Source: Mytilus trossulus | Taxonomy: Eukaryota | DNA length: 64,000 bases | Reading direction: 5' to 3' | NCBI RefSeq assembly: GCF_036588685.1 | Contig: NC_086386.1 | Location: 43,710,001 to 43,774,000 of the forward strand | Part shown: positions 11,151 to 64,000 of the stretch, piece by piece | Numbering within the stretch: position 1 is the stretch's first letter | How the letters are laid out: the number at the start of each line of letters is the position of its first letter | Notes under the pieces: model-generated | The model's input: only the letters and a program-made list of their open reading frames with translations | What the model was told of the DNA's origin: nothing | The model's database searches: none | Program-made: the position numbers and the translations under genes

Positions 11151-12668
11151 AACTTCATTCAAGGAAATCATGAAGGGAAAAGCAATAAAATGAAAAATGA
11201 AAAATATATCACTAAGTCTTTCATTACAAATGAGACAACTATCCATATAGAGACCAAATGACTTTAAATATTTAATCACAAGATATGTATATGTGAACCA
11301 ATCACCCAATATTACATGAGCTATTCAAATTATCTTTTTTTTTGTCAGAAAAAAAGGGTTATGTATCGGGTTTAAAGAGATCGAAGGCCTCAAAACAGTA
11401 TGAATAGTATGAATAGTAAAATACAGATAATGAGGTAACTCTCACAAGAGCGCAAATGACACAGAAATTAAAACAACTATATCATAAGGTCACCGTACAG
11501 CCTTCAATAAGCAAATTCCATACAGCATTGTCAGCTTCGTCTCCGAAATGACAAATGTTAAACAATTCAAACGAGAAAACTAACAGCCTAATTACAAAAA
11601 AATAGCTGAAACTAATATGTAACACATAAACCAACGACAACCACTGAATTATAGGTTCCTCACTTTTGGACAGAGGTACCGCGGCATAATACAGACTGTA
11701 GTGGGATTAAACATGTAAGCGGGAATCCAACCCTCAAACGAGAAGAATAACGGAAAAAAAAGTGAACGGTATTCCATGTCTTCGTAATGGCTATGGCTGC
11801 AGCTTTCTGTTGCATATTAGTTTATAAAAGAAGATAAAGAAAACTTACAGAATATATGCTAAAAGCGGGAAAAAATTAACAAGAAAATGTGACCTTTATA
11901 TCATAAATCATAAATATGTCTGTTTATATTAACACATGATCAGAAATGACAAAATGTGAAACATTTCACTTGAAAAAAAAAACACCAACGGATTCACGGA
12001 TTCACGGATTAATGTAATAGAATTAAGATATGATAACGAAATATTCATGACATCATTGTAACGTCATTAAATTGGCTAAATGACGTCATGAAAAATAAAA
12101 AAAATAAACGAGATTGAAATGGCATTGACAGATCATCATTATATTATGATTTTAAAGCTAAAATCAATATTTATTTTATTAACCTTAACCATCGGCCCAA
12201 TCGGCCTATTGGCTGCTAAACAACAACTAAATCGGCCCAATCGGCCCATTAGCAGTTAAAGGTAACCCGCTGGCAGATAATAAAAAAATGGTATATAACA
12301 TAGAACGTTGTAGTCTTATATTTCTTTGTGAATATTTGTAATCGTTAGACTTTTCAGTGTAGTTCGGAATCAATTTGTCGAGATAGTAAAAGTCCAAGGA
12401 GTATGGAATTTAAAATCTTAGCGTCTGCTCGATTACCAAATAAGTTGATTTATTAGAATTTTATTGTTTCTATTCAAGGATTTTGTAAATTCTTGACGTT
12501 TTGTGTTGATATATTTTAATCTCACCGTGATAACTGATTTACGACACCGATTTTATGTACAAATTGTATGTGAAAACGAAAAATCAATGAATACTAAAAA
12601 AACACACATCAACAAACAGACCATGAAAAAATCGATGTAAACAAACAGCAGATCACAGATTTCTGAAG

Positions 12669-12772
12669 ATGGATGTTGAACAGAGAAAATTTTTCAATGA
12701 TTTTGTGTGTAAAGTAAAAGTTTTTGATAAACAGCAATGTGTACGGTGTTTTAATCTATTTGATAAAAACAG
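12669..12772 (+). CDS. Naam: Nicotinamidase alternative first coding exon 1a (MDVEQRKFFNDFVCKVKVFDKQQCVRCFNLFDKN-R)
   Basis: ATG in AAGATGG context, open frame, AG|GTAAG phase-2 donor; splices in frame to 20963 to complete the EF-hand loop DKNRDGYLDGKE. Confidence 0.8.
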
Positions 12773-13378
12773 GTAAGCTACATTCATGATTATTGTTGTC
12801 CGATATATACGCGTATTTCCCCTTTACGGAACAGGTAAACACTACAACTTACAAGTAAAACAGGTGAAGAACAGGTGACCCTATATATATATGCAATTAG
12901 GAAGTACACATTCAAACAGATAAATTCACATTTGCATGTGAATCAGTGATTAAAGTGTTTTTTTAAGATTCAGAACAGCAGTGAAATAGATTATTCAATT
13001 ATATGTAATTTGTGTTATATGCCATATTTGGTCTTGTTTTATTGAATTTTTTTAATTAGGTTATTTTTAGCAGTTTATGCAGTAATGTTTGTAAATGCAA
13101 GGCAATTGTTATAACTTTTGTTTGCACATCTACAAACAATATATGGCCAGACACAATGATTAAGTGAGTCCTCAACAAGTGTTTCAATGCAAAGGGTTTG
13201 AAACATTTCTGTTTATCATGATCTTTTTTATATGCACAAATGGAAGCAGGACAAATGGCCAAACTGTCAAATCGCCTCACTTTTTCACCAACTCTTAAAA
13301 AATCTACTATATATATGTACTTTACCTGTTTAGGTTTGGATGAGCTCAGTTTATAGACAACGGACCCATTACTTTTAA

Positions 13379-13775
13379 GGAAGCTGGCTTGTCCTGTTTT
13401 GGATTTTTTTGCAGATTTTCGGAATCCCCCAAATCTGGTTTTATCCTTTTGAATGCCTTGAAAAATTTTGCCTGGTAACCCCCATTTTTCTTTTTGTAAA
13501 TATTGTACATGTATAATGATAAGCCATCTGTTAAAAGTCTTATAAAATTTTAATTAGTTTTTAACAGTTTTTGAGAACTTCAACTTGTCAATGATAAATC
13601 TATGAAAAGTCAAGAGGGAATGTTTTCCCGCCAAAATTTCAATGGCTAATATCTCGAAAACAAGCACGGTAACCTATATATTTTATTTGCTCTGTGGATT
13701 CCTTTATTAATCCACTATTGATATAAACTAATGTTTTGAAAAGTTAATTACTTTGAAACTGAGAAGCGAACTCCC
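13379..13775. mobile_element. Degraded TTAA-type (Kolobok-like) MITE
   Basis: TTAA-GGAAGCTGGCTT ... AAGCGAACTCCC-TTAT imperfect TIR. Confidence 0.5.
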
Positions 13776-14033
13776 TTATAAAGTCAATGATATAAGGTGT
13801 GTATTTGTATTTGCATATAAAAATTATTTGTTACCCTTCTCGCTGTCAGGGTCAATTGACATTTAGACTTTTGCATATATGTTAGCCATGGGAGCTTACT
13901 TTATAAATTATATTTTATTAATTATCTACATGATCTACAGGCTTGTGAATGATAAAATTTAGATTTGATATAATATAGTCAATTGATATTTAGTTTTGGT
14001 AGTCTGAAACAATTATAGTATTTTGTATATTGT

Positions 14034-16220
14034 CTGCAGTTCTTTACTTAGGACTGTTCAGCACATTGCTGCAATTCTTTACTTAGGCCTGTTCAGCATA
14101 TTGCTGCAGTTATTTACTAAGGACTGTTTAGCACATTGCTACAGTTCTTTACTAAGGACTGTTCAGCATATATTGCTGCAATTCTTTACTAAGGACTGTT
14201 TATCACATTGCTACAGTTCTGTACCAAGGACTGTTCAGCACATTGATGCAGTCCTTTACTAAGGACTGTTCAGCACATTGCTGCAATTCTTTACTAAGGA
14301 CTGTTTATCACATTGCTGTAGTTAAATTCTTTACAAAGAACTGTTCAGCACACTGGTGAAATTCTTTACTAAATGACTAAGGGCTGTTCAGCACATTGCT
14401 GCAATTCATTACCAAGGACTGTTCAGCACATTGCTGCAATTCTTTACTTAGGACTGTTTATCACATTGCTGCAGTTCTTTACCAAGAACTGTTCAGCACA
14501 TTGCTGCAATTTTTTACTAAGGGATGTTCAGCACATTGCTGCGATTCTTTACTAAGGACTGTTCAGCATATTGCTGCAGTTTTTATTTACTAAGGACTGT
14601 TCAGCACATTGCTGCAGTTCTTAACTAAGGACTGTTCAGCACATTGCTGTGCAATTCTTTATTTAGGACTGTTCAGCACATTGCTGCAATTCTTTACTAA
14701 TGACTGTTTATCACATTGCTGCAGTTCTTTACTAAGGACTGTTTATCACATTGCTGTAGTTAAATTCTTTACAAAGAACTGTTCAGCACACTGGTGAAAT
14801 TCTTTACTAAATGACTAAGGGCTGTTCAGCACATTGCTGCAATTCATTACCAAGGACTGTTCAGCACATTGCTGCAATTCTTTACTTAGGACTGTTTATC
14901 ACATTGCTGCAGTTCTTTACCAAGAACTGTTCAGCACATTGCTGCAATTTTTTACTAAGGGATGTTCAGCACATTGCTGCGATTCTTTACTAAGGACTGT
15001 TCAGCATATTGCTGCAGTTTTTATTTACTAAGGACTGTTCAGCACATTGCTGCAGTTCTTAACTAAGGACTGTTCAGCACATTGCTGTGCAATTCTTTAT
15101 TTAGGACTGTTCAGCACATTGCTGCAATTCTTTACTAATGACTGTTTATCACATTGCTGCAGTTCTTTACTTAGGACTGTTCAGCACATTGCTGCAATTC
15201 TTTACTGAGGACTGTTCAGCACATTGCTGGAGTTGAGTTCTTTACTTAGGACTGTTCAGCACATTGCTGCAATTCTTTACTGAGGACTGTTCAGCACATT
15301 GCTGTAGTTGAGTTCTTTACTTAGGACTGTTCAGCACATTGCTGCAATTCTTTACTAAAGAATGTTCAGCACATTGCTGCAGTTCTTTACTAAGGACTGT
15401 TTAGCACATTGCTGCAGTTCTTTACCAAGAACTGTTCAGCATATTGCTGCAGTTTTTTTTTTACTAAGGCCACATTTAAAAGAATGTCTGTTTCCCCTCC
15501 CCTGGGTCTATCCATTGTAAACAGACCATGGAAGGCAAGTTCTTTTTTTTTCTTTTTTTTTAAAAACTGGATGTGATTGTCATAGCATGGTCACATGAAT
15601 GGTTTGACTTGTCCAGTCCAGGCCACTTATCAGTTGTTTGTGCTCAATTTGTGTGTATCTATTTAGATTATCAATCCTTCTGCTTTTAAGCACTTTCCAA
15701 AAATGGAAACAAATTATTTTTAGGAAAAAAAATAATTTTCCATTTTTTTGTGGAAAATAACTTTTTTACCAGGGGGCTTATTTTTGACCCGAGTGGGGGG
15801 TGGGGGGGGGGAAACAAACATATTTTTAATTTTGGTCTAAGGACTGTTCAGCACATTGCTGCAGTTCTTAACTAAGGACTGTTCAGCACATTGCTGTGCA
15901 ATTCTTTTTTTTAGGACTGTTCAGCACATTGCTGCAATTCTTTACTAAGGACTGTTCAGCACATTGCTGCGATTCTTTACTAATGACTGTTCAGCATATT
16001 GCTGTAGTTTATTTAACTAAGGACTTTTCAGCACATTGCTGTGCAATTCTTTACTAAGGACTGTTCAGCACATTGCTGCGATTCTTTACTAAGGACTGTT
16101 CAGCATATTGCTGCAGGTTTTTTTTACTAAGGACTGTTCAGCTTATTGCTCAGTTCTTAACTAAGGACTGTTCAGCACATTGCTGTGCAATTCTTTACTA
16201 ACAACTGTTCAGCACATTGC
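14034..16220. repeat. 35-bp minisatellite (~50 copies) with a 438-bp higher-order duplication, interrupted by a MITE
   Basis: Unit CTGCAATTCTTTACTAAGGACTGTTCAGCACATTG; identical ORF-track peptides 438 bp apart (14373/14811, 14396/14834). Confidence 0.95.
15468..15837. mobile_element. PIF/Harbinger-like MITE inserted in the minisatellite
   Basis: ~30-bp TIR GGCCACATTTAAAAGAATGTCTGTTTCCCC / GGGGAAACAAACATATTTTTAATTTTGGTC; TAA duplicated, as judged from the intact repeat unit. Confidence 0.8.
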
Positions 16221-17043
16221 ATCTTCACCACATTACCAAAGCAAATGCAGTTTTTTTTTTAAACAAACCCTCTTCCACAAACGTAAAAACACAAGTAAAG
16301 ACTGTTAATAGATATAGGAAGATGTGGTGTGAGTGCCAATGAGACAACTCTCCATCCAAATAACAATTTTTAAAAGTAAACCATTATAGGTTAAAGTACG
16401 GCCTTCAACACGGAGCCTTGGCTCACACCGACCAACAAGCTATAAATTAAAGGGCCCCAAAATTACTAGTGTTAAACCATTTAAACGGGAAAACCAACGG
16501 TCAAATCTGTTACTAAGTCAAGATTTGGATTGAGTCTGACTATTTAAGCATTTATAAGCTACATTTATATACCTATATGTAGTTATTTTCTTTCAAAACA
16601 ATATATATATAGGTCATTCTTTCGAAGATTCAACCTGGACGATACCCTTGCTTTCACCTCAATTTCATGATTTTTGTCATGTCAATTTAAAAAATGAGTA
16701 ATCATGGTAATAGGATAACAATATTTTGCATATTGGATATGAGGCCCTTGCAATGCCTACATGGCTATCAGACAGGCTCCATTCTCAATTATATTCATGG
16801 AGCAGTGATTAAGTTACCTGATTTCTGTTTCTCAGATATTATAAGCAGTAGGTCAACTACAAATGATATATGTGGCAAAGTTATGATTGTAAGGGATACT
16901 ATTACATGCCAGTCTGTTTCATCTGACCCTGACCTGATTTTCATGGTTAATTGCATTGGTAAATGTTTAAAGTTTTTGTGCTTTGGTCTGTTTTAATCAA
17001 TTTCTTATAGCAATATAGGTCAAGAATGTTTGGTGTATAGAAT

Positions 17044-17320
17044 GAGGGTAGTAATGCCCTTTAACGTCGGGCATCAAACAGTCATTTTCAGCTACTGTTA
17101 ATGTCAAGTTGGTTAAAATGTTACCATGATTCTTCAGAGGCCTCAAATAATTATTGTTACTGTTATTTTTGTAAAAAAATTAACGTCAATATCAGTCAAT
17201 GTTTCTATTGTCTAAAAGAAAGTCTACATTTTTTCGTCATACACTAACAATTACTGCTAATTTCATTTGTCAAGAATTTTTACTGTTATCCGTCATGAAG
17301 GTGCCCCCATTACGACCCTC
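17044..17320. mobile_element. MITE with AT flanks (ISL2EU-like), nested in an older HINE remnant
   Basis: TIR GAGGGTAGTAATG / CATTACGACCCTC, AT on both sides. Confidence 0.65.
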
Positions 17321-18163
17321 ATAATTGTATAAAGTGTACATGTCTGTCTGACAGTATTTATTTGACTTGACCTTATTGTTATGAATCTGAAAACATGTTT
17401 AGTTTATGTGATGCTCAAAGTAAAACTTTAATATTTTAGACTTTCAACATAAAATGTTTCATCAGTAAAGCAGACATTTCAGCATGTGCACTCTTGTTAT
17501 GTTAATTAGATGAGGAAGGAGTACCATTGTCAAGAAAAGCGCCACATTGAAATGCGTTCAGTAGACCTAAAATCCATGATATTTGACAATTTCAGTTCTA
17601 GCAATTGTCAAAACACTTCTAATGACTATGGAAATATCACTCAATGTTTGCCAGGCCTCATTATATGCTATCCATATATGTTTCTTACTTATTCCCCCAT
17701 TGACCAGAGGAGATTTCTCGCTCTGCTGTTGGGGATTAATTTATGTCATATACATATATGTATTGACTATTTATAATTGATATTTAATTTTAGCAGAAAA
17801 TAATTTGAAAAGGAGAAAAATGGTTTGAACCAAATCTTATCAGGAAAATTATTTTTCTTAAATTTAAATACATGTAGGTGTGTAATTTATGACATATGCA
17901 GTTTACTTGTTACATTGTATGTTTATGTTGAGTCATCAGATGGTGTCACTTTAAATACATCATGGGTCGTCATTAATTTTCTGGTCCAAAGTTTATAACA
18001 ATCATGTAATTTTCTGGATAAATCTTTTAATATAAAACCTTTAATATCATAACACATAGTCATATTAGTAGGATTATAAACCTCTTATTTCAAAGTACAA
18101 AATATAAAACTATAAGTATTTTAATCCTGTACATGTTGTATAACTCTTTACATAGAATTTAAA

Positions 18164-18273
18164 ATGGATATTATGAAGGCACAAAATGATTTTATAAACA
18201 GCTTCAAAGCAAAACAGAAATTTTTTGATGCACAGCAATGTGCTTGGTGTTTCCACTTGTTTGATGAAAACAG
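18164..18273 (+). CDS. Naam: Nicotinamidase alternative first coding exon 1b (MDIMKAQNDFINSFKAKQKFFDAQQCAWCFHLFDEN-R)
   Basis: AAAATGG start, open frame, AG|GTAGG phase-2 donor; clear paralogue of exon 1a (FD.QQC..CF.LFD.N); upstream acceptor ctttacatAG at 18155. Confidence 0.8.
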
Positions 18274-20387
18274 GTAGGAGTATTTGTTATGCTTTGATAT
18301 TAATATGATTTTTCATTTCACTCTTCTCTTATTAAGCTTGTGATATGGATTTTTCTCAGTAAAAATAGAATGTATGGAGTCATGAGCTTACATCATCTAG
18401 GAATACAATAGCAAACACATTATCAGTCTTTAAAACTTTAGGATGTTTCTAGGTTACGTTCTCATCACAGGGTTGTTGCCCTTTGAAAAAATTGTTACTG
18501 ATGAAAAACGCCCTCTCATCCGAAAATCCACCATTAATCTACAGTTTATTATACATATATTATTTTTTATGAAAATTCTTATCAACATGCAGTTACAGTA
18601 AATATAAAAATCGCCTGAAAATCTAATTTCAATGTATTATTAAAAGTCAAACAATTGTAAATTAAGGTCTGACAGGACATAACACAAAGAAGAAAGTTTT
18701 GTCAATTTTTGCTCACTTGTAAATAAGATGTGCGTTTCTAAAACATTTATGACTATAAGTTGTTTGACATTTGATTCAGGTCCGTCACTTGTATCAGACC
18801 TGAATGTCAAATAACTAAGGTTTTCCAATTCCTTTAAAATTTCTTACATTTTAGGAGTGAATGTATCATTATTGAGGCAAAGCTTACAGTGATTTAGCTA
18901 GCGCTCGTCACTTTCGTATTTTACGAAAAGGTTTTCGAAATGACGAAAATATTTCATATCAATTTCGTCACTTAAATTTGGAAAGTGTAAAAATATTTAC
19001 ACATCAAATTACTTGAATTCTACCTGTCTTTATGTTTCTGACAAGTTTATGACCCTCAGGTAATTAACGTTTACCAAAGGTGTTAAAAGTTGTGATGACA
19101 AGTAATCCGCCTATCGCCAATCAGATGGGTCGCTAATCCCTTAATTATCATTATAAAACCTCATAAATGACCATCATAATAATCTATTTAGGTTAAATCA
19201 GTCAGTCAGCATTTCATTTTAATCATTTCTCACAGTTCAGTCGTATTTTCGTCATTTGAACAAAATTGATAAACTTCCCGGACATTTCAACTTTATTTTA
19301 ATTTCAATATTTCCCTTACGATCATAATTTGCAGTTTGCTTGTCGTAGTTTCGTCATTTCAACGTATTTTCGTCATACTTTATATAAATATTCATCAAAA
19401 ACTTTCGACAACTTCGATTAAAAAGAATGAACTTTATTCAAAACGTAAATATTTTCACTTGCAAACAGGTGCTTCCTGTTCTATGTATTGCGCATGCGTA
19501 AAAGATCGTAGATGAATCCGGTTTTATTCTGAAATTATAATTCAATTGTCACTTCCCGTTTTCATTTCATTTCGTTTAAAAATCGAAAGTAAACATGATC
19601 TACAGTCTACAGTCATTAGAATCGTCACATTAAGTACGGATGCAGATCCTTCTATCCAATATTAAAGAAATTGATTCCAAATAGATATTAAAACGTATTT
19701 TCAAGGATATACATGATTGTGAAGGGAAAAAGTCGTTACAAGTTCATTTGTGCAGTGGTTAAAAAATAGAGGCACCCAACTTTTGATAAGGGGTGTGCCC
19801 TGAAAAAAACTGAAGTGATGTTTTGACCATATTACCAGATCCCTGTTCTTATCTTCATATCTTAGCATCACATCAGTCAATTCATTCAATATATATATAT
19901 TGTCAATAACTGCCTACATTAGCAAGTCTTCAAAGATCCTAGACTAGTCCTTGAAGGACTTGGACATATATATGTATAGCTAGTTCGATAAACATCCTAG
20001 ATCCCTTGCTTTATAAAAAATTAAGGCTGATTTTTATCACGCGCAAAAGTGACTAAAGCCCTCAAAATCCTAGCTAAAACCCTGGCTTACAGTTTTATTT
20101 GTTAGTTTCAATTTCTGATATTTTATGACTACTGCTTCATAAAATTATAACAGATTTTGCAGGAAATTTGGTTTATAATAACATTCTGATGATTTTTGAA
20201 CTGAACTGGGGTAATCCCTTGTAACATCAGCTTGAAATTAAAAAGTTCATCTTTTATTTCTTTGGCAACTTGAACTAATGCTTCCCTTGCAAAGCTGTTG
20301 CAGAAATACAGTGTTATGGATGGGTAACCCATACCCTTTCTGTACTATTATTGTACAAATGTACAGTGAAAAAATAGACGTTTATTT

Positions 20388-20752
20388 AATAATTGAATGC
20401 TTCTTTTTATAAATTTATTGGGGTGTAAAAGCGTTGACCGAAGTACATTTTGTATGAAGTGCGGAAGTGCTTCATTCTAAAAATGTACGCACTGTCAACG
20501 CTTTTACAACCCTATAAAGTTACAAAAAGAAGCATTCAATACTTATAATTACATTTTTAGCTAGGATTATAAAAACACGATTTTCATGAAGTTAAATTTT
20601 TAAATTCACCTGTGCACTTTATTGTGGGACCTCGTGTCATCATGAATGAAATGTTATTGTCTCATGCAACTGCTTACGGAATAACATGTGATGTGCAATT
20701 AGCCAATCAGAATAACATTTTATAATGAAACATACATCTAATGTAATTATTT
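20388..20752. mobile_element. Element with a ~150-bp palindrome at one end
   Basis: Arms ATTGAATGCTTCTTTTT...TGTAAAAGCGTTGAC / GTCAACGCTTTTACA...AAAAAGAAGCATTCAAT (20392-20540). Confidence 0.65.
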
Positions 20753-20962
20753 ATTGAATGAGAGTTAAATTCTTCATTTCTTTTTTTTATTTAGGTACAG
20801 AGAGGGGTATTTACTAATTTTAGATGGAAAGGAGTTAGATTCTATTTAGTGTGAAAGCTTTCTTCATTCTTTATCTATATTTTCAGAGATGAGTATTTAG
20901 ATGGAAAGAAATTAGATGTTTATTTAGTGTGAGTTTTCTTCATTTTGTATCTTTATTTTCAG

Positions 20963-21089
20963 AGATGGGTATTTAGATGGAAAGGAATTAGATAATCTTT
21001 TGTTAGCAGTTTTCTCTGATGGTACAGAATCCTACACTGTTAATTCTGACTATAAGGCTGAACTGTTAAAACTGCTAGATCAAGATCAG
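20963..21089 (+). CDS. Naam: Nicotinamidase exon 2 (EF-hand 1 loop/exit helix and start of EF-hand 2)
   Basis: tttttcAG|A GAT GGG TAT...: DGYLDGKELDNLLLAVFSDGTESYTVNSDYKAELLKLLDQDQ, donor CAG|GTATC. Confidence 0.85.
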
Positions 21090-21307
21090 GTATCTTATAT
21101 TTATATATTTCAACATAGATATGATTATTCAGAGGGCATATCAAATAAGGGTGATGTCTGAAAACATGGACATTAGAGACAGATGATACAAGTAATTGGT
21201 TACTTGATTTAGTCAATAATCTTACTTGTGATTCATTTATTTCTGTGAATATCAATTTGTGTTAATTGAGGAGAAATTCTATTTGCAGATATTTTTGTTT
21301 TCCTTAA

Positions 21308-21585
21308 GGTGGTACCTAACACTACAGGGAGATAACTCTGTAAAATCAGTTAAACGTTTTAATTACGTTGTGTTGTTTAAGGTAATATTAAGCTTCTCAA
21401 TGATCAAAATAGGTGTTTGTCAAACTGCTATATATATAACCAGTGTAATTTTTCTGATAACACGGTTGGTTCAAATTCTTAATTTTTTTTATATTTTTGT
21501 CAAAGGATCAAAGTAAATACTTTGTCAAAATTTTATTTAAATTAAACAAGCCAAATTAATTTTAGTTTATGTGTTGGGTACCACT
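21308..21585 (+). mobile_element. TTAA-flanked MITE (Kolobok-like)
   Basis: TTAA-GGTGGTACCTAACAC...GTGTTGGGTACCACT-TTAA; inverted copy at 39146-39408. Confidence 0.85.
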
Positions 21586-21729
21586 TTAATATTTAATTTC
21601 ATGGTTTTGTCAGAGTCTGAATACAAACATATAGAAAAAATTTGCTTAGTAAAACATTGAAATCCGAGGTTAATCTATACCCACATAAACCAATGACCAG
21701 GAAACTTAATATTCCAGGATTGATAAATA

Positions 21730-22110
21730 TTAATAATAATAATAATAATATAATAATTATTCTTTATTTAAAGAGGGTTACACAGTTAGCTATAAAGCTA
21801 ATCTTCCCCGAGATCCTCATGAAACACAATGACATATAACAAACAATTACAAAATATCAAACAAACACACATACATGAATAAAGCAATAAAAAATTGTTA
21901 TGAAATATACAATTTTCCAAACAGGTTAAAGTTACAAATTCCTATATGACATATATAGTATTGCCATCAACAATATCATAAGTTTGAGTAAGTGTGAGAA
22001 AAATATTATGCTAATAAAATCGCACAGCTTTTAAATGATCCAACAAGTAATTTTTTAAATCTTTTTTGAATGAGCTTGTACTTGAGGTTGATTGTATCCA
22101 CAGTATTGAA
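21730..22110 (-). mobile_element. 3' end fragment of an L2/CR1-group LINE
   Basis: Minus strand ends ...GGGAAGATTAGCTTTATAGCTAACTGTGTAACCCTCTTTAAATAAAG plus (ATT)n tail; upstream translates SSFKKDLKNYLL. Confidence 0.6.
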
Positions 22111-23099
22111 ATATAACACTCAATATTTTTCCTGATATTCCTTTTCTTTGAAATTTACCTCATTTTCCTTGTTCATGTATAAGATACATTGTACTATAAA
22201 CAATAGGTCATCTATATCCATGACCTAATTTTTATAGAAGTTAGACTGAAATTTTTTTTGGTATTAAGGTCTGATATTTTTCCAATACCGGTAGGCCTAA
22301 TATATTTAGGGTACCTGTAATGATTATAAAAAGTGGTTGTCTGTCTGCCAGGGTTTATCTGACCTTGAACTCCTTTACTTTGATCATTGATAATGTTAAT
22401 TATGGTTGTATTATATTAAAACCTTTATATTACATACTTTTAAATACAGTAAAGTAGAGGCAAGACATTTCAGTGTGTGCTCTCTTATTTTATTTTTAGT
22501 TTTTAGGAGTTTGCCTTATTTTTAATATTTTGACTCAATTTGCCTCTTTTTAATATATCATAAAGAATCTTAAAGATAATGACTTTTTTCCTACTTTACA
22601 AATTTTAGCACTTAGTGTACAAATGAACATTTTCCCATGTAACTTCTATGCTATTTTAAATAAGTTTGATCCACAGAAAAATTTAAAAACAGCATTTTGC
22701 TGAAATCAATATTTACTAATGTGCACTTTGTCTATACTTATTTTTTTTGGATACAATATATATAACCAAAAGATAAACTTCTCATTACAGTACACAAAAA
22801 TTCCTACACACACTTGAAACCCACATCAAAGTAACAATTTACCTATTATCTTGCATTTTAAAATTTACTTGACAAACATTTGTTAAAGGAAAGCTGATAA
22901 TTTATTGATCTAATATAGTTTGGAGTGTTTTTCTTGGTTTTAAACAGGCTATATCTCTAGGTACAACTATTAAATAGGAAGAGATGTGATAAGTCCTAAT
23001 CAAACTTAATAACTGATCAAACATTTGAAGTAGTACTGACGTTTTACCATAAACATTTAAAATAGCACAGTCATTTGACTATGATCTTTATTGACTCGT

Positions 23100-23220
23100 G
23101 ATCAGATGGCCAGTTTTCTTGGTCAGTAGCCAGTTGTTCTCTCCCAGCACTAAAAACTGGATGCCATTAGATAACCAACATTGTTGAAAGTGGCATTAAA
23201 CACAACCAATCAATCAATAA
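23100..23220 (+). mobile_element. Degraded SINE 3' fragment
   Basis: AAAACTGGATGCCA...GTTGAAAGTGGCATTAAACAC(AATC)n tail, similar to 40177-40410. Confidence 0.45.
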
Positions 23221-23804
23221 ACTAAGGAACAAATGTGAATACCAACTGAAGGGTTTTTGTTGTTCAGAAGTTAAAATTTAGACCAAAGAAATTTACAATC
23301 ATGTATTTAATCCGCTGAGTCAGGATTTTGAAAAAAGGGCGCCCCATGGCCCCAAACAAGGCAGTGTTTTTTTAGAACAGTTAAAAAGAAAAAGTCTTCA
23401 TTAACTTTAAATGTAGCTTCATAAAGGGGGTTTGGCCCCCTGTCCTCTCTCATTAAGTCTGCCTCTGTGAAACTTTTGATAAAGCAATTGTCAGCATGTA
23501 TGGAAAATAAAATAATTCAACTGAAACAAAAAGTACCGTTGATTTTACAATAAATCAAAAGTGATGTACCCTAATCATACACAATAATGACATTTCTTGA
23601 CAGGTGTATGGTACATCTCTATATATATAAAGTCATTATATATTCAAAATGAAACTATCCCCAGGTATGTTGTGATTAATGATACAGAATATTTCTATGT
23701 ACATGAACTAGAAGCTGTGCTTACTTAGTAAGAAAATTAGCCTGACAGTGTTGTTACCTGTGTATTGGAAAAGTCATCAACTCCATTTATAATTGTATTG
23801 ATTG

Positions 23805-26278
23805 TAGTATCAGGACATTGGTTTTATTCCTTTAACAGGGGGTATATACAGAGATGTTAAAATAGTGTTATCACACTGTTAAATACTAGTCCAAGGTTTC
23901 CGGACCTAATAATAGTATCAGGACATTGGTTTTATTCCTTTAACAGGGGGTATATACAGAGATGTTAAAACAGTGTTATCAGACTGTTAAATACTAGTCC
24001 AAGGTTTCCGGACCTAATAATAGTATCAGGACATTGGTTTTATTCCTTTAACAGGGGGTATATACAGAGATGTTAAAATAGTGTTATCACACTGTTAAAT
24101 ACTAGTCCAAGGTCCCCGGACCTAATAATAGTATCAGGACATTGGTTTTATTCCTTTAACAGGGGGTATATACAGAGATGTTAAGATTAGTGTTGTCAAA
24201 TCGTACACTTTTGCCTAACCGGTTACTCGGATAATCGTTCGACCGATTAACCGGTTAACCGGTAGTTTTAAGTTGTCATTCGAAAGCCTTTTCAATAGTT
24301 CCATACATGTACACATAGTTATAAGATGTGGTAAAAGTGTCAATTTGACAACCTTTCATCCAAGTCATAATACTACGATTAAAGAATTGAAGTTTGTCCT
24401 TTGGCATTATAAGGCTTTATCTTACATTGATCTTTTGATGTAGTCCCTTAGTTTGCATTTCACAATTTTTAAGGTAGCATTTCGTTTAAAGAAAGACTAA
24501 ACCTTGCACTACTGAGGTCACACATTAAGATGTTTACACAATATTAGATCAAAAACGAAATAATGAACTAATTAGTAAAATTTAATCGCATCTCTGATTT
24601 AAAGTTATTGTTAAAAAAACATGTTTACCAATCATGTTTCTTTAAGCTCCTGCCCTGAGCTCTAATTAATTTCATGTATTTAGAATCAACAATAGCAATC
24701 AATCATATACTGGGCAATTGATCTGTCAAATAAATAACCACGACGACAATTTTAAAATAAAACATAACTATTTAATGATTTCCATGCAAATTTATATCAA
24801 AACTATCAAAATTGAAAAAAAAGTCCGGTTAACCGGTTAGCGTTTTTGGTATTCGGTATTCGGTCGTTCGACCAGTTAACCGTTGACAACACTAGTTAAA
24901 ATAGTGTTATCAGACTGTTAAATACTAGTTCAAGGTCTCCGGACCTAATAATAGTATCAGGACATTGGTTTTATTCCTTTAACAGGGGGTATATACAGAG
25001 ATGTTAAAATAGTGTTATCAGACTGTTAAATACTAGTCCAAGGTCTCAGGACCTAATAATAGTATCAGGACATTGGTTTTATTCCTTTAACAGGGGGTAT
25101 ATACAGAGATGTTAAAATAGTGTTATCAGACTGTTAAATACTATAGTCCAAGGTCTCCGGACCTAATAATAGTATCAGGACATTGGTTTTATTCCTTTAA
25201 CAGGGGGTATATACAGAGATGTTAAAATAGTGTTATCAGACTGTTAAATACTAGTCCAAGGTCTCAGGACCTAATAATAGTATCAGGACATTGGTTTTAT
25301 TCCTTTAACAGGGGGTATATACAGAGATGTTAAAATAGTGTTATCAGACTGTTAAATACTATAGTCCAAGGTCTCCGGACCTAATAATAGTATCAGGACA
25401 TTGGTTTTATTCCTTTAACAGGGGGTATATACAGAGATGTTAAAATAGTGTTATCAGACTGTTAAATACTAGTCCAAGGTCTCAGGACCTAATAATAGTA
25501 TCAGGACATTGGTTTTATTCCTTTAACAGGGGGTATATACAGAGATGTTAAAATAGTGTTATCACACTGTTAAATACTAGTCCAAGGTCTCCGGACCTAA
25601 TAATAGTATCATATTGGGCCTAGTGTTATCAGACTGTTAAATACTAGTCCAAGGTCTCCGGACCTAATAATAGTATCATATTGGGCCTAGTGTTATCACA
25701 CTGTTAAATACTAGTCCAACGTCTCTGGACCTAATAATAGTATCATATTGGGCCTAGTGTTATCACACTGTTAAATACTAGTCCAAGGTCTCCGGACCTA
25801 ATAATAGTATCATATTGGGCCTAGTGTTATCACACTGTTAAATACTAGTCCAACATCTCCGGACCTAATAATAGTATCATATTGGGCCTAGTGTTATCAC
25901 ACTGTTAAATACTAGTCCAAGGTCTCCGGACCTAATAATAGTATCATATTGGGCCTAGTGTTATCACACTGTTAAATACTAGTCCATGGTCTCCGGACCT
26001 AATAATAGTATCATATTGGGCCTAGTGTTATCACACTGTTAAATACTAGTCCAAGGTCTCCGGACCTAATAATAGTATCATATTAGGCCTAGTGTTACCA
26101 CACTATTAAATACTAGTCTAAGGTCTCTGGACCTAATAATAGTATCATATTGGGCCTAGTGTTATCACACTGTTAAATACTAGTCCAAGGTCTCCGGACC
26201 TAATAATAGTATCATATTGGGCCTAGTGTTATCACACTGTTAAATACTAGTCCAAGGTCTCTGGACCTAATAATAGTA
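23805..26278. repeat. Composite satellite: ~10 x 108/110-bp units followed by ~10 x 67-bp units sharing a core
   Basis: Period 108 (23805, 23913, 24021) switches to period 67 at 25604; shared core TAGTGTTATCACACTGTTAAATACTAGTCCAAGGTCTCCGGACCTAATAATAGTATCA. Confidence 0.95.
24188..24894. mobile_element. hAT-like MITE inserted in the satellite
   Basis: 12-bp perfect TIR TAGTGTTGTCAA/TTGACAACACTA, 8-bp TSD GTTAAGAT/GTTAAAAT, subterminal AACCGGTT motifs at both ends. Confidence 0.85.
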
Positions 26279-28096
26279 TAGGGCCTATATATTTAGTGTT
26301 GATGTCATATCAAAGGAAAGTTGTCTTGTTTAAAAGTAAATATGGTTCTCAAGTACCTGCTTTGTTGTTGTATTGGTATTGATGTTTAAAATGTCAAAGT
26401 TTAAATTTTCTGATTATTTCATATCAATGAACATTGACCAGTAATTATATTCAATAAGGGCTTTGACCAGTTAATATTGATGTTCAGAGAAATTTTTAAG
26501 GTTGAGAGAAAGATCTTTTTTTTGGGGGTGGTTATCGATGGGATTGATTTAAATAAAATTGAGAACGGAAATGTTTCAAAGAGACAACAACCTGACCATA
26601 GAGCAGAAAAACAGCCGAAAGCCCACAATCAGCAAGAATTTCCAGCATTGGAGGCATGCTTCAGCTGGCCCCTAAAAAAAATATGTACTAGTTTCTAGTT
26701 GAACCATTTTAATACGATGTTAGATTAAGCATATTTAAGAACCCCAAGAATTCAAGAATAAACCCCACTGAAATTGATCATGAAATAAGCCATTTTCATT
26801 TGAAGAGGTCTAGTGATCTATATTAGAAGAGGTCCACAAACTACTTCAGTCATTTGGTCAATACAGTCCCTAAAAATTATTGACACAACTGAATTTTAAA
26901 AGAATGATTTTATTATAATTCTATTCACATGGTGAATATTTAAAAATAGTGAAAACTGGCTACTACCGTATTTATCATTATTATGAATATTCATTTCTTT
27001 TAACTAAACATGGTTCTATATCAAAAACACAATAAAAACAATGTACAAAAGAAAAAATTAAAGGCAATCATACATCAGAAAAATAAGTATCTTAAGACTA
27101 GTTATATCTCGTTTCTTCTATTCAACGGAAGATGATGGTTAAATGTAGTGTGTCAGGCGAATTCTTAAAAACAGGCTTCAGCTTGTTGAAGTGTCATCAA
27201 TTGGTTGTGATATAAATTTAGAATTTGATTGTCTAATGCTAGTTTTATGTAGAATTTGATTATACAATCGATAATGGCCAATCATTTTACACAACATGTT
27301 TTATGTACTAACTTGTTATATTCTTTTTCAGAAGAGTAGATTTTATATTGATCTATTTCATGTTCATTAAAGCAGATTAATAAAATCAGGTCATTAGCCA
27401 ATGTTTTCTACCTGTTTTAATTAATGATAAGATGAAAGAATTCTAGACGTGATTTCAACACTGGAAAAAATATGTTTAAAAAAATCAAAGAGAAAAAAAA
27501 AGAGATTTAATTTTTGAAAATGAAAATTTTATGTTGAAACGGTTGCAGAGTATTAGGTTTTTAATTCACTATAAAATAAACATTGTTTAATTGATTTATA
27601 ACAGTAAATGTTCTCTATGCTGTAAAAGGTTGGGTATAATTTGAATGGTTCAATATTTAAAGGATCTTCAGGAAAACAATGTAATCTGTAGTCAAAGACG
27701 ATTTTTTTATGACCATAAATAGTTCTTTTTGTTACTTATTGATCCAGTCTTGCAAACATGCAATTAAGTCTTAAAATTGTTGTAACATAATTTCCTTTAA
27801 GTAATCTTTTTTATCATGATATCTGATTAATAAATTCATGTTTAAACTTGCACATTCATTTGAAGTGATAAACCCCGGTTTTATAAACCATTCCATTTTT
27901 CGTGGAAAACATGGGTATTCATTTCAGTAATTAATGGTAAAGTACTCTGTGGATTTTTTGTACTTATTGATTTTATTAGACACTTTTTTATTTTAATGTT
28001 TTATGTATGTTGATTCACCAACTTATGACATTTATCGTAGATGTGTCATGCATATTGAAATCAGTAGCATATTTAATTATTGAGGGGGTGGGGTAT

Positions 28097-30230: not shown

Positions 30231-30287
30231 GATGACAGATTAAGTAAAAAAGATTTTCTGGAAACATGCTTTTATTGGTTGAAACAG
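30231..30287 (+). CDS. Naam: Nicotinamidase exon 3 (DDRLSKKDFLETCFYWLKQ)
   Basis: ttacAG acceptor, CAG|GTAAAG donor, phase 0/0; completes the second EF-hand-like loop DQDQDDRLSKKD. Confidence 0.85.
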
Positions 30288-30951: not shown

Positions 30952-31191
30952 ATATTACAGCCAGTATCTGCTTTGATAGTGGTTGATGTGCAGAATGATT
31001 TTTTAGATGGTAGCCTTGCCCTTCGTAATTGTCCTGCTGGTCAAGATGGCCTTGGGGTCATTCCAGCCATTAATTCCGTCCTTGACACCGTCAACTTTGA
31101 CCTGGTTGTGTATACAAGAGACTGGCATCCATCAAATCATATATCATTTATAGACAATATAGATAAACGAAAACTACACTCAACAAATAAG
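30952..31191 (+). CDS. Naam: Nicotinamidase exon 4
   Basis: ALIVVDVQNDF (catalytic Asp) and TRDWHP (metal ligands); canonical AG/GT; 240 nt. Confidence 0.95.
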
Positions 31192-32113: not shown

Positions 32114-32242
32114 ATCTTGTGTTCAGAGGCCAAACCTATGGATACTGTGATATTTGAAGGTCCACCCCCAACTGTACAGAAACTCTGGCCATCACATTGT
32201 ATTCAGGGTTCATGGGGATCAGAGTTACATACAGAATTGAAG
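32114..32242 (+). CDS. Naam: Nicotinamidase exon 5
   Basis: ILCSEAKPMDTVIFEGPPPTVQKLWPSHCIQGSWGSELHTELK (WPxHC motif); AG/GT; 129 nt. Confidence 0.95.
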
Positions 32243-33682: not shown

Positions 33683-33851
33683 AACACAGATGGTGGTATC
33701 ATAGTTAACAAAGGAACACATCCCAATGTGGATAGTTACTCAGCATTCTGGGACAACAATAGGCAATCCCAAACAGATCTGGTCAAAATATTGTCAAAAC
33801 ACAAAGTTACTGATGTGTATGTGTGTGGTGTAGCATATGATGTATGTGTAG
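33683..33851 (+). CDS. Naam: Nicotinamidase exon 6
   Basis: NKGTHPNVDSYSAF (catalytic Lys) and GVAYDVCV (nucleophile Cys); phase-1 donor G|GTAAG. Confidence 0.95.
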
Positions 33852-34441: not shown

Positions 34442-34584
34442 GGTTTACCTGTTTAGACGCTGTAGAACATGGATTTAGGACAGTACTAATTGAGGATGCC
34501 TGTCGAGGTGTAGATCTGACAGATATAGATGAAATGAGGAAAAATCTGAAGACCAATGGTGCTGTCATTAGTCATTCCTGCAAG
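34442..34584 (+). CDS. Naam: Nicotinamidase exon 7
   Basis: (G)FTCLDAVEHGFRTVLIEDACRGVDLTDIDEMRKNLKTNGAVISHSCK; AG/GT; phase matches exon 6. Confidence 0.95.
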
Positions 34585-34640
34585 GTATGATTTTAATTTA
34601 CAAACTTTGTACTTTTGTACTTTACATTTCAGTCAGGATC

Positions 34641-35735
34641 CTACTTCGTCAAAATTATCTCCCCATTACGCCAGTTCATTTTCACAATCGTAGAAACGTA
34701 AGCCATTGTAGGGATGACGCGCAACCAATTTTGCTCTTGGAAACCGATAAATTTATCCACATTGCACCATTACGATCTTATATGTCAGTTGTATTTTTAA
34801 AGACAAATGTATCAACTAGCTAATGAGCATCAGTTAATAATCTTGTCTGCATTGATTCAGCTTAAAACTATTGTCTGATCGGTGGTCAGGTGGAATTTTC
34901 GAAAATTCATAAAATTAAATTAAATATTTCGTGGAAGGGCAGACTAGATTTTTTTAGTGTATAAAGACTATAAACTCTAGTTATCACACACAAAAAATTA
35001 GAATTTTTCGAAGATATGCATTTTCATCATCCAACTTGAAAGACTGTCGTCAAGTACTTTCAGTAAAAAAATAGCTATACGAACACACCTTCTCTGTTTT
35101 TGTGACTCATTAGATAGGTATTTCACTTGACCCATATATTCCATCTTTTAGTACTGTGATTTTTTTTGTGTTATAACATCAACCTGTAGCTTTAATATAT
35201 AAAAATGATAGAATCTGAAGCGAGACGATGTATGAAATATTCTTACTTTGTACGATATCAAGACAAAATACTCAATACAAACACGCCCTAACATAAAAAG
35301 GTGCACTCGATTTTCACTTTTCGATACAATTGTTACCCATTTTTTTTATTTATTTCTTCAGTCACATAATCAGGGCATATAGGGCAGACACGAAAATTAC
35401 TGAACTTATAGATTGATATGGTTTCCGTCTGTGGTAATTTTTTTCAAAAAAATCGGAGGTTATGCATTTTTGTCATCCAACTTGAAAGATACCCATGTCG
35501 TGGACTTGGTATCTAATTGTTCTGCTTAACTATGAACTAGATAAATTGAAAACTTATGCAAATGGTGTTTTTAAAATAAAATGCCTCGTAATTGAGAAGA
35601 AAATTGCAATTTTGTTTGTTTCTATTAACTTTTAAAATTTTTGTCACTATAGTAAACAATACAGTAATCATTTATCGCCTTCTCTAATAAAGAGCTTAGA
35701 TTCTTTTGAACTATTTCAACCTGGTTTCCGACTGC
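34641..35735 (+). mobile_element. ~1.1-kb unclassified dispersed repeat, inverted copy at 62826-63914
   Basis: Continuous high similarity to the reverse complement of 62826-63914. Confidence 0.85.
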
Positions 35736-35854
35736 ATTTGTCCAAAAAAAATGCATATCCAGTGACATATGCCCAAGAGTTATTTGCACTTCTAATGGGT
35801 CTTGTCCTGATTGACCAACAATTTGAAAATTGTAACCTTTGTCTGAGACAATTT

Positions 35855-36286
35855 CATGAAAGTTGTACTTGTCCTGTAGTTTGTTTTTGACATGAAAGTT
35901 GTACTTGTCCTGTAGTTTGTTTTTGACATGAAAGTTGTACTTGTCCTGTAGTTTGTTTTTGACATGAAAGTTGTACTTGTCCTGTAGTTTATTTTTGACA
36001 TGAAAGTTGTACTTGTCCTGTAGTTTGTTTTTGACATGAAAGTTGTACTTGTCCTGTAGTTTGTTTTTGACATGAAAGTTGTACTTGTCCTGTAGTTTAT
36101 TTTTGACATGAAAGTTGTACTTGTCCTGTAGTTTATTTTTGACATGAAAGTTGTACTTGTCCTGTAGTTTGTTTTTGACATGAAAGTTGTACTTGTCCTG
36201 TAGTTTATTTTTGACATGAAAGTTGTACTTGTCCTGTAGTTTATTTTTTACATGAAAGTTGTACTTGTCCTGTAGTTTGTTTTTGA
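35855..36286. repeat. 36-bp minisatellite, 12 nearly identical copies
   Basis: Unit CATGAAAGTTGTACTTGTCCTGTAGTTTRTTTTTGA. Confidence 0.95.
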
Positions 36287-36326
36287 CCCATCTGTGTATT
36301 GTTAGGGTCCCCACCTAGTTGTGAGC

Positions 36327-37386: not shown

Positions 37387-37494
37387 ATTAAAGATCTTGT
37401 TGAAGCTCATGACCGACCACCTCAACTTGGGTTACAGACTGCCAAAAATGTGGCATTGGCCAGGACCCTTGTAGCAGAGGGAAAAGTAACGTGA
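37387..37494 (+). CDS. Naam: Nicotinamidase last coding exon (IKDLVEAHDRPPQLGLQTAKNVALARTLVAEGKVT*)
   Basis: Strong polypyrimidine acceptor caacAG, phase 0, DRPxxLG C-terminal motif, TGA at 37492-37494. Confidence 0.85.
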   Translation: MKDLVEAHDRPPQLGLQTAKNVALARTLVAEGKVT

Positions 37495-45051: not shown

Positions 45052-46210
45052 TCAATTTAGAGCACCACCGTCATGTTTTGTCATGAAAGGGTAACACACT
45101 TTTTGTAATTCTTTCAATTTGTCCTCATATTCTTATTTCTCTGCCAGAGGATTATTATCCAACCAATTTCGTGACTCTTCACAAGGCTGTTTAGCACTAA
45201 CTATGTAGTGTTTCAGTTGATTTCTTGCTGTGAAACGCTGTGTTTGCTTTTCATCTTCTTCTTTATATTTCTTTGCATTGGAAACCATTCGTTCAATTTC
45301 CTCTATAGCGAGCCCTACACTGTCACTTATCACAGTGATTTTTGTTAAATTCCCAGTGCTTTCTTTGTAAGCAAAACATCTTAAAGTCCATCAATATCAA
45401 CATCAAATTTTAAAACAATGTTAACTGCACCACGGGGGATGGAGGTAAATCATTAAGATAAAATGTTCTACCAAAATAAGGGTCTGTGGTCATAAATCTG
45501 CCTCCTTCAAACACTTTAATACTAGATAAAGGTTCATCGTTCGAAAATACCTTTGAAACCCTTGCAGGAATCATAGTATGTTGACCATAAATCCAGCTGC
45601 AGTTTCTAATTCAAGGGAAAAAGGAACTACGTCCATTAAAACTATGTCACTATGATAACCTGACAGTAAAGCTGCTTCCAAAGCTGCACCATAAGCAACA
45701 GCTTCATCTGGATGGACGGATGTATTCAGTAATTTCCCATCAAAATAATTATGTAGTATTTTTCGTATTTTTGGTATCCTTGTTGAACCTCAACAAGTAC
45801 AATCTCATTAATAGAACCTTTATCAAGTGTAGTATCTTTTAAAGCTGTTTCAACTGGTTCAAGTGAACGTATAAACAAATATTCACCTATTTTTTTTCAA
45901 ATTTTGATCTAGTTATTTTTGTGACGAAGTCTTTTCCCTCAAACAAAGAATAAATTTCCACACTTACCTCAGTGCTGCTGGACAATGCTAATTTTGCTTT
46001 CTCACAGGCTGATCTCAGTTTTCTGATTGCACGATTATTGCCAGAAATATCCTTTTTATACTTTCTCCAAAATTCATTTACAAAATAATGTGGAGCGAAC
46101 ATCGTACACTAAATCCTCATCTATTAAAAGAATTGAAACGTCGAATGCTCCTGCTCCCAAATCAAATATTAACACGTTTCTTTTGCCTGATAATTTCTTG
46201 TCAAGACCGT
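45052..46210 (-). pseudogene. hsp70: HSP70 pseudogene, lacks the N-terminal ~180 codons, many frameshifts and deletions
   Basis: Fragments [58 protein letters not shown]. Confidence 0.9.
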
Positions 46211-51141: not shown

Positions 51142-52938
51142 CTAATTGTTTTGAGGACCAGTGTGACCCTTTGTTGCGAAGGGGATGCACACTTTTTTCA
51201 ATTCTTCCATTTTGTCCTCATATTCTTCTTTCTCTGCAAACAAATTATTATCAAGCCAAATTAGTGACTCTTCACAAGCCTGTTTAACACTAAATATATA
51301 GTGTTCCAGTTTATTTCTTGCTGCAAGAGCCTGCTTTTGTTTATCATCTTCTTTTTTATACGTCTCAGCATCGGAAACCATTCGTTCAATTTCCTCTTGA
51401 CTGAGTCTTTCTGTGTTATTTGTGATTGTAATTTTCTTTGAATTTCTATTGCATTTGTCTATAGCTAAAACAGTAAAAAGTCCATTTGCATCAAAATCAA
51501 ATTCTACATCAATTGTAGTCACACCTCGGGGGGCCAGAGGTATACCATCCAGATCAAATTTTCCAAGACATTTATTGTCTTTTGCCTTGTCTCTGTCACC
51601 TTCAAAAACCTGAATCATCATTGCGGGTTGCTGGTCCGAATACGTCGTAAATGTCTGTGTTACACTTATAGGGATCCTTGTATTCTTTCCAATTAGTTTG
51701 GTCATTACACCACCTGCAGTTTCAATTCCCAGAGAGAAAGGAGCTACGTCGATTAAAAGTACATCTTTGATGGTGTCGCTGCGATCGCCTGACAGGATAG
51801 CAGCTTGGACGGCTGCACCGTAAGCAACAGCTTCATCCGGATTGACCGATTTATTAAGTTCTTTTCCATTCATAAATTCTGACAGCAAGTTCTGTATTTT
51901 TGGTATCCGTGTAGAACCTCCTACAAGTACAATTTCGTCAATACTACTTTTATCAAGCTTGGCCTCTTTTAGCGCCTTTTCTACAGGTATAAGTGTACCC
52001 CTGAACAAATCTGCACACAGTTCTTCAAATTGTGCTCTAGTTATCTTTGTGTAAAAGTTTATATCTCCATACAAAGAATCACACTCCACATTTGCCTCTG
52101 TACTGCTTGATAAAGTTTTCTTGGCTTTCTCACAAGCTGTTCTCAGTTTTCGTTTTGCACGATCATCGCGCGAAATGTCTTTTTTATATTTTCTTTTAAA
52201 TTCATTTAAAAAATGATTGACCAATCTGTTGTCAAAGTCTCTGCCTCCAAGTCGACTATCACCGACTGAAGAACGAACCTCGAACAATGAACTCTCATGT
52301 ATCGTAATAATTGAAACATCAAATCCTCCTCCTCCCAAATCAAACATTAGGACGAGTTGTTCGCCAGATAATGTTTTGTCAAGACCGTAAGCTAAAGCAG
52401 CAGCAATTGGTTCATTTATTATCCGTAGGACATTAAGTCCTGCAATAAAAGCAGCATCTTTTGTGGCTAGTCTTTGAGAAAAACTAAAGTATGCTGGCAC
52501 TGTGATGACGGCATCTGTAACTTTCATTCCGAGATAATCTTCAGCTGTTTCTTTCATCTTTACCAATATCATCGAACTTATTTCCTCCGAGGTAAATGTT
52601 TTTGTTTTGCCTTTGTGTTCAGCTTGTAGTTTTGGCTTGCCTTCACATGCGATGACTTTGAATGGCCAAAATTTCATATTTGACTGTACTTCCAAATTAC
52701 TAAATTTTCTGCCGATCAGTCTTTTGACATCAAAAATTGTATTTGAGGCATTCACTGCAATTTTGTTTTTAGCTGCATTACCAACCAGTCTTTCAGTATT
52801 CGTGAAAGCCACATAACTTGGAGTTGTTCTGTTCCCCTGGTCGTTGGCAATGATGTCTACTTTGCCATGCTGGAAAACACCAACACAAGAGTACGTTGTT
52901 CCTAGATCAATTCCGATAGCTTGACATTTTCCTGCCAT
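51142..52938 (-). CDS. hsp70: Heat shock protein 70, intronless CDS, atypical (598 aa, shortened lid, no EEVD)
   Basis: [34 protein letters not shown] signatures, DVLLIDV linker, SBD; open from ATG to TAG; likely 5'UTR intron acceptor tttacAG at ~52956. Confidence 0.97.
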
Positions 52939-62335: not shown

Positions 62336-62825
62336 TCTGTAAATGATTGAAGTCATGTTTCCTATAATGTTGTTGAGTTATCCTTCTTTGTTTATAACAT
62401 GGACAAATACAAATACGAAAACGGTCTTATTTAGGACCCATTTAGTATCATATTGAATAAAAAATTATCAAATTATATTTGACAATTTATTTTCACATGT
62501 AAAAGGTTACTTACTATGTCTCAGTTTGAAAGGAAAATCCTGAATGTAATCAACATTATGCACGACCCGATGTTTTCACAACTTATTTTGAGGTCAAATC
62601 CTTAAAATGGAACTCGTCGAGGACCATCTATCGTAGCACAGTTAGCACTATTTCCTGTCCTATTCACCAAACGTTAAGATGAGATATGACATAAAAATAT
62701 AATGTCAGATTATGTTGATATCTATATATACATAATTTACTTAGTTTACTAAGTAGCTGATTGCATAACCTTCAAATACACTGATGAGAAGAGAATGCAG
62801 CTATTCATGTATTATGTATTGCAAT

Positions 62826-63914: not shown

Positions 63915-64000
63915 GGCGCTACGGGAGAATAACACCTCCCAAAACAAAATCTATCAAATTTATTCGTTCATAGTGTGTAAATATACGTTTCTTGGTTGAG

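Follow-up and report, generated by a model that had tools for sequence, protein, structure and literature searches.

Here, we describe a gene of the mussel Mytilus trossulus for an EF-hand nicotinamidase, an enzyme that recycles vitamin B3; the gene carries two copies of its first coding exon, 1a and 1b, within a window of 64,000 nucleotides (nt) on the forward strand of contig NC_086386.1 (positions 43,710,001 to 43,774,000; assembly GCF_036588685.1). The feature is real, was correctly set out in a preliminary description of the window, and is already present in public annotation. Our preferred reading, to which we give a probability of about 0.6, is that the gene makes a main 1a form and a minor, more loosely constrained 1b form, and that the alternative starts are kept for regulatory reasons. 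An ancient tandem duplication of the first coding exon would have left the two copies, of which each transcript would likely carry only one. Both forms would be the same enzyme with the same calcium ligands, and would differ in a predicted N-terminal helix. The choice between them would be made at the 5′ end, where we infer either one shared CpG-rich promoter, with splicing of a leader from the candidate donor 12261 to 12479 in the 1a form and to 18156 in the 1b form, or a second, tissue-restricted promoter of the TATA type. A transcript holding 1a and 1b in tandem would contain a premature stop, and hence would give no fused protein. Having two starts most likely serves regulation above all, bearing on where, when or how efficiently the enzyme gets made, and any effect on the Ca2+ response would be small and indirect.

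Re-reading of the DNA bore out the positions, ATGs, open frames and phase-2 GT donors of both exons (Table 1). The donors read CAG/GTAAGC at 12772 (1a) and CAG/GTAGGA at 18273 (1b) and fall in the 99.9-100th percentile among all GT dinucleotides of the window, a ranking that is partly circular, as the small matrix used was trained on these two donors and the gene's other donors. Either exon joins in frame to 20963, yielding the two 12-residue EF loops that had been claimed. With the seven shared exons, 1a gives a protein of 358 amino acids (P0033) and 1b one of 360 (P0035); both translations match letter for letter, AG/GT ends stand at every junction of both eight-exon models, and the proteins are isoforms X2 (P0033) and X1 (P0035) of M. 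trossulus LOC134697169. The stop-to-stop span around each first exon is just 49-50 codons. The proposed paralogy of the two exons, which lie 5.4 kilobases (kb) apart, is beyond chance (blastn, 12717-12775 against 18218-18276, 79.7% over 59 nt, E 3e-7), with 17 of the final 32 residues identical, and a genome-wide translated search with 1b gave two matches from two candidates, namely 1b and 1a. The feature under test, two homologous and adjacent 5′ coding exons that share a donor phase, is thus present.

Table 1. Features of the two-start EF-hand nicotinamidase gene (positions count from the first letter of the window)
Feature	Positions	Strand	Content	Basis
Likely promoter and 5′ region	12000..12500	+	CpG observed/expected ratio 1.46	motif matches
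First coding exon 1a	12669..12772	+	34 codons + 2 nt (104 nt); predicted N-terminal helix, EF-hand-1 entering helix, loop positions 1-3	splice model (P0033); predicted structure
Candidate weak acceptor and 8-nt leader before 1b	18137..18163	+	AG ends at 18155	sequence score only
First coding exon 1b	18164..18273	+	36 codons + 2 nt (110 nt)	splice model (P0035)
Shared exon 2	20963..21089	+	EF-hand-1 loop positions 4-12, exiting helix, EF-hand-2 entering helix	
Shared exon 3	30231..30287	+	end of degenerate EF-hand-2 loop and its exiting helix	
Shared exon 4	30952..31191	+	nicotinamidase (isochorismatase-family) domain begins	
Shared exon 5	32114..32242	+		
Shared exon 6	33683..33851	+	region of catalytic Lys and Cys	
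Shared exon 7	34442..34584	+		
Last coding exon, shared	37387..37494	+	includes stop codon	

By sequence and predicted structure, the gene is a mussel member of the animal EF-hand nicotinamidases (Naam type). Both isoforms match the isochorismatase family PF00857 at 96.6-96.8 bits (cut-off 27) and carry an EF-hand pair at the N-terminus (PF13499, 34.8 and 35.9 bits; cut-off 30), and the top seven PDB sequence matches are nicotinamidases or Pnc1. The nearest solved structure is the Drosophila nicotinamidase 9U8M (phmmer E 3e-95; Foldseek E 5.6e-40), on which the model superposes over residues 24-349 with a Z score of 43.6 and a root-mean-square deviation of 1.4 Å, 326 residues being aligned at 44% identity. 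The Asp-Lys-Cys triad and the Asp/His/His metal-site motifs, whose roles are well established, can be matched position by position to those of 9U8M and 2WT9 and are conserved across a 29-sequence alignment. A genome search with exon 4 gave three matches from three candidates, the two others being paralogues of 53-55% on C13. These two further nicotinamidase-like genes (L002 and L003) are about 47% identical to the present gene over the start of the catalytic domain, and the 3-kb loci fetched for them hold no EF-hand match.

That the window encodes two isoforms of one EF-hand nicotinamidase, as first proposed, agrees with public annotations of four Mytilus species, in which both forms are present. 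RefSeq holds X1/X2 pairs for M. trossulus, M. edulis and M. galloprovincialis, and GenBank holds pairs for M. coruscus (CAC5389330/331) and M. galloprovincialis (VDI67614/616). Our survey covered one protein cluster, with 15 of its 16 members listed; among these, five named proteins are of the 1b type (M. trossulus, M. edulis, two from M. galloprovincialis, M. coruscus) and five of the 1a type (those four species and M. californianus), while five further full-length mytilid-like records (P0002, P0003, P0039, P0040, P0042) are all of the 1a type. We regard it as scarcely credible that the pair is an assembly artefact, or that 1a is part of another gene or of a truncated paralogue. Satellites do lie nearby, and the exon-2 acceptor has a local 100-nt tandem copy (20819-20917), but independent assemblies of four species carry this pair in their annotations, which already largely refutes such an origin. 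Moreover, the divergence of 1a and 1b is too great for haplotypes, and no second downstream exon set was found in the window, nor one for exon 4 in the genome.

Transcript evidence was drawn from 4 of 24 runs, whose RNA nature was guessed, and consisted of contigs only, placed on 16400-23700. Run X1 holds a 1571-nt contig that carries exon 2 at contig positions 378-508 with 0 differences and extends 377 nt upstream of it, with zero depth over 1b. The contig is as long as expected of a leader of 276 nt followed by 1a, the shared exons and a tail of 217 nt, by which its upstream part would be 1a. In run X6, depth is 3.1 in the bin holding 1b and 0 in both adjoining bins, the pattern expected for a spliced exon; the 1b bin has depth 0 in the other three of the four runs, which is no evidence of silence. 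Thus, the 1b isoform rests on annotation and the depth hint in run X6, and the 1a form on transcript-derived full-length proteins and a fitting contig.

A search with region 1-60 of P0035 gave one protein among five candidates, the 1b form of M. coruscus, and none outside Mytilus; a short-protein search for 1b gave no candidate, and an exact look-up of two exon peptides found neither (0/2). Absence of 1b outside the genus is nevertheless not established by these searches, because clustering at 90% hides isoforms. Of 32 oyster cluster members, 15 were listed and 10 fetched, and all 8 that were full-length have a single N-terminal type; the X1 and X2 isoforms of C. gigas differ by one lysine near the C-terminus. 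The three scallop records fetched also have one N-terminal type.

Judged from comparison of the two exons, the tandem duplication is old and both copies are constrained. Over the final 19 codons, the synonymous divergence (dS) between 1a and 1b is about 1.65 and the nonsynonymous divergence (dN) 0.22; over the final 16 codons the values are 1.8 and 0.16, and over 32 codons dS is saturated. The paralogue dN/dS is about 0.1. In the 300-nt flanks, similarity is at the level of shuffled sequence, 168 and 160 of 200 shuffles scoring as high. We further simulated neutral drift in 20,000 runs, counting as passes those copies that kept the ATG, the frame, the GT donor and at least 12 of 19 residues; the pass rate was 1.3% at 0.3 substitutions per site, 0.2% at 0.4 and 0.005% at 0.6. 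Because simulated neutral copies so rarely keep these features, 1b would have been constrained for most of its history. Between 22 and 27 of the final 28 residues of 1a match those of four mytilid-like records, compared with 15-17 of 28 for 1b; 1a is the ancestral-like form and 1b the derived duplicate. The earlier suggestion that both exons are under selection holds in that purifying selection is seen on both, but it is unequal, 1b being much less constrained.

This inequality raises the alternative that 1b is decaying or near-neutral, an exon formerly constrained, now rarely spliced, and annotated through low-level reads and homology transfer. We consider this quite unlikely. Its protein does change about 10-fold faster than the rest of the gene, its surroundings are CpG-poor and its acceptor weak, none of the records listed is a transcript-derived full-length 1b protein, and only one of the four runs has depth in the 1b bin. 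Against decay, the frame, the ATG and the 13-residue EF segment are intact in all five sequences from four species, the donor is strong, and the paralogue dN/dS is low. The variable sites of 1b number six, all within the first 23 residues, and the final 13 are invariant in 5/5 sequences (one-sided p 0.052); one variable site shows four residues, all hydrophobic (F/M/I/V).

To discern what the exon swap changes in the protein, the EF-hand itself has to be considered. The canonical ligands of the EF loop are positions 1, 3, 5, 7, 9 and 12 (PMC3997525, in part). The first coding exon supplies loop positions 1-3, of which ligands 1 (D) and 3 (N) are the same in 1a and 1b and only position 2 differs (K/E); D/N stands at positions 1/3 in all 10 named Mytilus sequences listed. 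A calcium switch, in the sense of alternative exons that differ in Ca2+-ligating residues, is thus not found, D and N being in both exons. In the Kretsinger EF-hand consensus, positions -8, -5, -4 and -1 of the entering helix face inward, and in both exons these are C, C, F and F. The two cysteines of the CxxC motif, at -8 and -5 from loop position 1, had been mentioned in connection with a possible tuning of redox sensitivity, as both exons keep them. Because they are identical in 1a and 1b, and the motif is also present in oyster, scallop and Mactra sequences, CxxC cannot tell the isoforms apart, and most simply it is part of the helix core and not an isoform-specific redox switch.

As the preliminary description had it, the isoforms differ only in the first coding exon; its narrower statement, which confines the differences to the entering helix and the start of the loop, says too little, as most of them lie in an extra N-terminal helix ahead of the EF-hand. 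Within the entering helix the exchanges from 1a to 1b are V/A, R/W and N/H, and the net charge of the swapped segment is +2 in 1a and -1 in 1b. Helices are predicted at residues 3-15 and 21-31 of the 1a form and at 2-12 and 23-33 of the 1b form, and an aromatic pattern resembling that of the N-terminal helix is present in oyster and scallop sequences. Models of both isoforms have the same predicted fold (mean predicted local distance difference test scores 94.0 and 94.1), and both lie above the Pfam cut-offs for EF-hand_1, _6 and _7 with similar scores. The loop of EF-hand 2 (21078-21089 joined to 30231-30254) is degenerate in Mytilus, with D at positions 6 and 12; in oysters these are G and E, which is canonical.

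Since EF-hand 2 is degenerate, there is room for a modest effect via EF-hand 1, and this leads to the main functional alternative, namely that the swapped N-terminal helix, entering helix and loop position 2 alter Ca2+ affinity or its coupling to catalysis, and that this is why both exons are kept. We hold this calcium tuning, which was also the initial proposal, to be unlikely, though it deserves some weight. EF-hand 1 would be its main site, the change of charge comes with a K-to-E exchange in the loop and an R-to-W exchange in the helix, and splicing of EF-hands can yield isoforms of distinct Ca2+ sensitivity (PMC9177970, in part). The proposal is weakened by the identity of the ligand and core positions named above, by the similar Pfam scores and the shared predicted fold, and by the literature: our search, with most subscription papers (including any on 9U8M) and supplements outside its scope, found no paper in which Ca2+ regulates any animal nicotinamidase, nor one that describes the Mytilus isoform pair.

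The regulatory role that we favour draws on the 5′ region. The stretch before 1a contains a cAMP response element at 12081, four CCAAT/ATTGG boxes at 12071-12237 and a TATA-like word at 12292, whereas the surroundings of 1b are CpG-poor (observed/expected 0.33 and 0.10) and the motifs upstream of it come down to one AP-1 word and two TATA words of a common sort. By sequence score, 12261 is a candidate donor of an untranslated exon (99.5th percentile) and 12479 a candidate acceptor (98.7th); these two sites and 18156 were chosen post hoc among 28 GT and 26 AG. The candidate leader of 1a holds 5-6 upstream ATGs and that of 1b none. Two 5′ architectures fit. In one, 1a and 1b are alternative splice partners of a common untranslated exon; in the other, 1b has a restricted promoter of its own.

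Tandem use of the two exons, initially described as impossible, is barred at the protein level only, because the spliced frame stops just before the ATG of 1b; for the RNA the exclusion does not stand. Splicing of 1a to the AG before 18156 brings a stop at codon 37, and all seven AGs tested in 18040-18200 give a stop. The former stop is 18160-18162 and ends one base ahead of the ATG at 18164. A tandem 1a-1b message could accordingly be a target of decay or a stop-restart transcript. From this follows a further alternative, that 1b is a cassette exon behind 1a, either a poison exon leading to decay or part of a stop-restart switch that produces the 1b protein. The adjacency of stop and start would suit it, as would an exon that has a candidate acceptor and a strong donor and no CpG-rich promoter. 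Yet no junction 12772>18156 was observed, the acceptor is weak, a stop beside an A-rich start context is unremarkable in AT-rich DNA, and an exon that acted purely as poison would have no need to conserve an EF-hand helix; we therefore think a cassette exon very improbable. These elements can also be combined, with a single promoter whose short untranslated exon feeds a splice switch that selects 1a (with several upstream ATGs) or 1b (with a clean leader), the tandem message as a stop-restart or decay transcript, and a swapped helix on the only intact EF-hand that would change the Ca2+ gating of nicotinamide clearance. We find this composite doubtful; if true, it would offer a natural two-state probe of the role of EF-hands in animal nicotinamidases.

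Several points weigh against a main 1a and a minor, regulatory 1b form. The ranking of the two forms derives from record counts and contigs, which cannot measure expression. Among the members listed, the M. californianus entry and the CAG entry of M. edulis each show the 1a form and no 1b, and a Logan/ENA source is given for none of the five 1b-type proteins, against two of the five named 1a-type proteins and two others; in addition, protein evidence can let annotations copy one another. No joint at 18273 or 20963 was found among the 15 of 84 joints and 24 of 1328 loose ends listed, the region being swamped by repeats. The candidate AG before 18156 is weak (93.4th percentile), the gene's seven true acceptors scoring 94.9-99.7 in a leave-one-out comparison. 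As to constraint, the dS estimates are based on just 7-15 synonymous sites (7-9 for the shorter segments), and 8.8% of neutral simulations pass when drift is set to 0.2 substitutions per site. When M. trossulus is compared with M. coruscus, 5/36 residues differ in 1b and 1/34 in 1a (p 0.20); with the shared body added to 1a the comparison is 4/358 against the same 5/36 (p 0.0005).

Other features of the window were recorded along the way. Intron 1 contains, at 18887-20085, a young dispersed non-coding DNA transposon of 1.2 kb, for which 472 genome candidates yielded 40 scored matches at 92-100%, and which has short terminal inverted repeats, CAG...CTG ends and target duplications of 5-7 nt in all four loci inspected; the element explains the high contig depth over this stretch. 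A promoter-like stretch at about 19460-19600, considered as a third first exon, falls within this repeat and was rejected. The odd N-terminus of P0003 was likewise dismissed as a third exon, since on inspection it resembles the start of P0042 read in a shifted frame. Partial tandem copies of the exon-2 acceptor region occupy 20750-20917 (88% over 100 nt) and include a strong decoy acceptor at 20887 (99.6th percentile), after which come 14 EF-loop-like codons and a stop; if used, it would give a truncated protein. Intronic tandem arrays lie at 14029-16239, 23805-26279 and 35855-36287, with units of about 36, 108/67 and 36 nt, respectively. An inverted repeat pair of 1.1 kb (34640-35738 and 62823-63916; 91% identity), one copy of which is in the last intron, is probably another mobile element. 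Downstream of the gene, three related stretches of 1-1.8 kb (45056-46210, 51149-52940 and 57759-59523) are 70-79% identical and possibly represent a tandem gene family or old mobile elements.

The pair shows cleanly, in an invertebrate, the duplication of a first coding exon, which belongs to a rare class of splicing that is usually functional, and it provides a ready comparison for whether EF-hands regulate animal nicotinamidases. Because the proteins are annotated, the class of mechanism is known and the calcium ligands are unchanged, it is tidy and will hardly surprise a specialist; the alternative start is real but of an ordinary kind.

Among known systems, Drosophila Naam (9U8M, 9ULF-9ULI; PMC9683716, in part) shares the fusion of an EF-hand pair to a nicotinamidase domain. 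It differs in that the 9U8M chain aligns only from mussel residue 24 and so has no counterpart of the N-terminal helix of 1a or 1b, and a duplicated first coding exon goes unmentioned in the accessible portion of PMC9683716. Mutually exclusive splicing of duplicated exons at calcium sites is described for alpha-actinin, P/Q-type calcium channels and OGDH 4a/4b, and in EF-hand loops introns are concentrated in the N-terminal half (PMC9177970, in part). Those exons are internal and in many cases have short introns with branch points lying far off; the OGDH pair 4a/4b switches Ca2+ sensitivity (PMC9177970, in part). In contrast, the mussel exons are first coding exons separated by several kilobases, with ligands unchanged. 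In C. elegans, pnc-1a and pnc-1b differ by alternative first exons, one of which codes a secretion signal. Isoforms a and b of this nicotinamidase are on record (PMC5576752, in part); the mussel exons, unlike them, are homologous duplicates, and by inspection neither has an obvious hydrophobic signal stretch. Closest in kind are the N-terminal substitutions derived from tandem exon duplication, a described class in which duplicated 5′ coding sequence goes with alternative promoter use and to which 39 of 236 curated human events belong (PMC8373072, in part). These share with the mussel gene homologous first coding exons, common downstream exons and purifying selection on both copies, whereas the mussel case is apparently lineage-restricted, evolves at unequal rates and may involve a splice choice from a shared promoter. 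The mussel pair would thus add a new case to the known class of N-terminal tandem duplicated exon substitutions.

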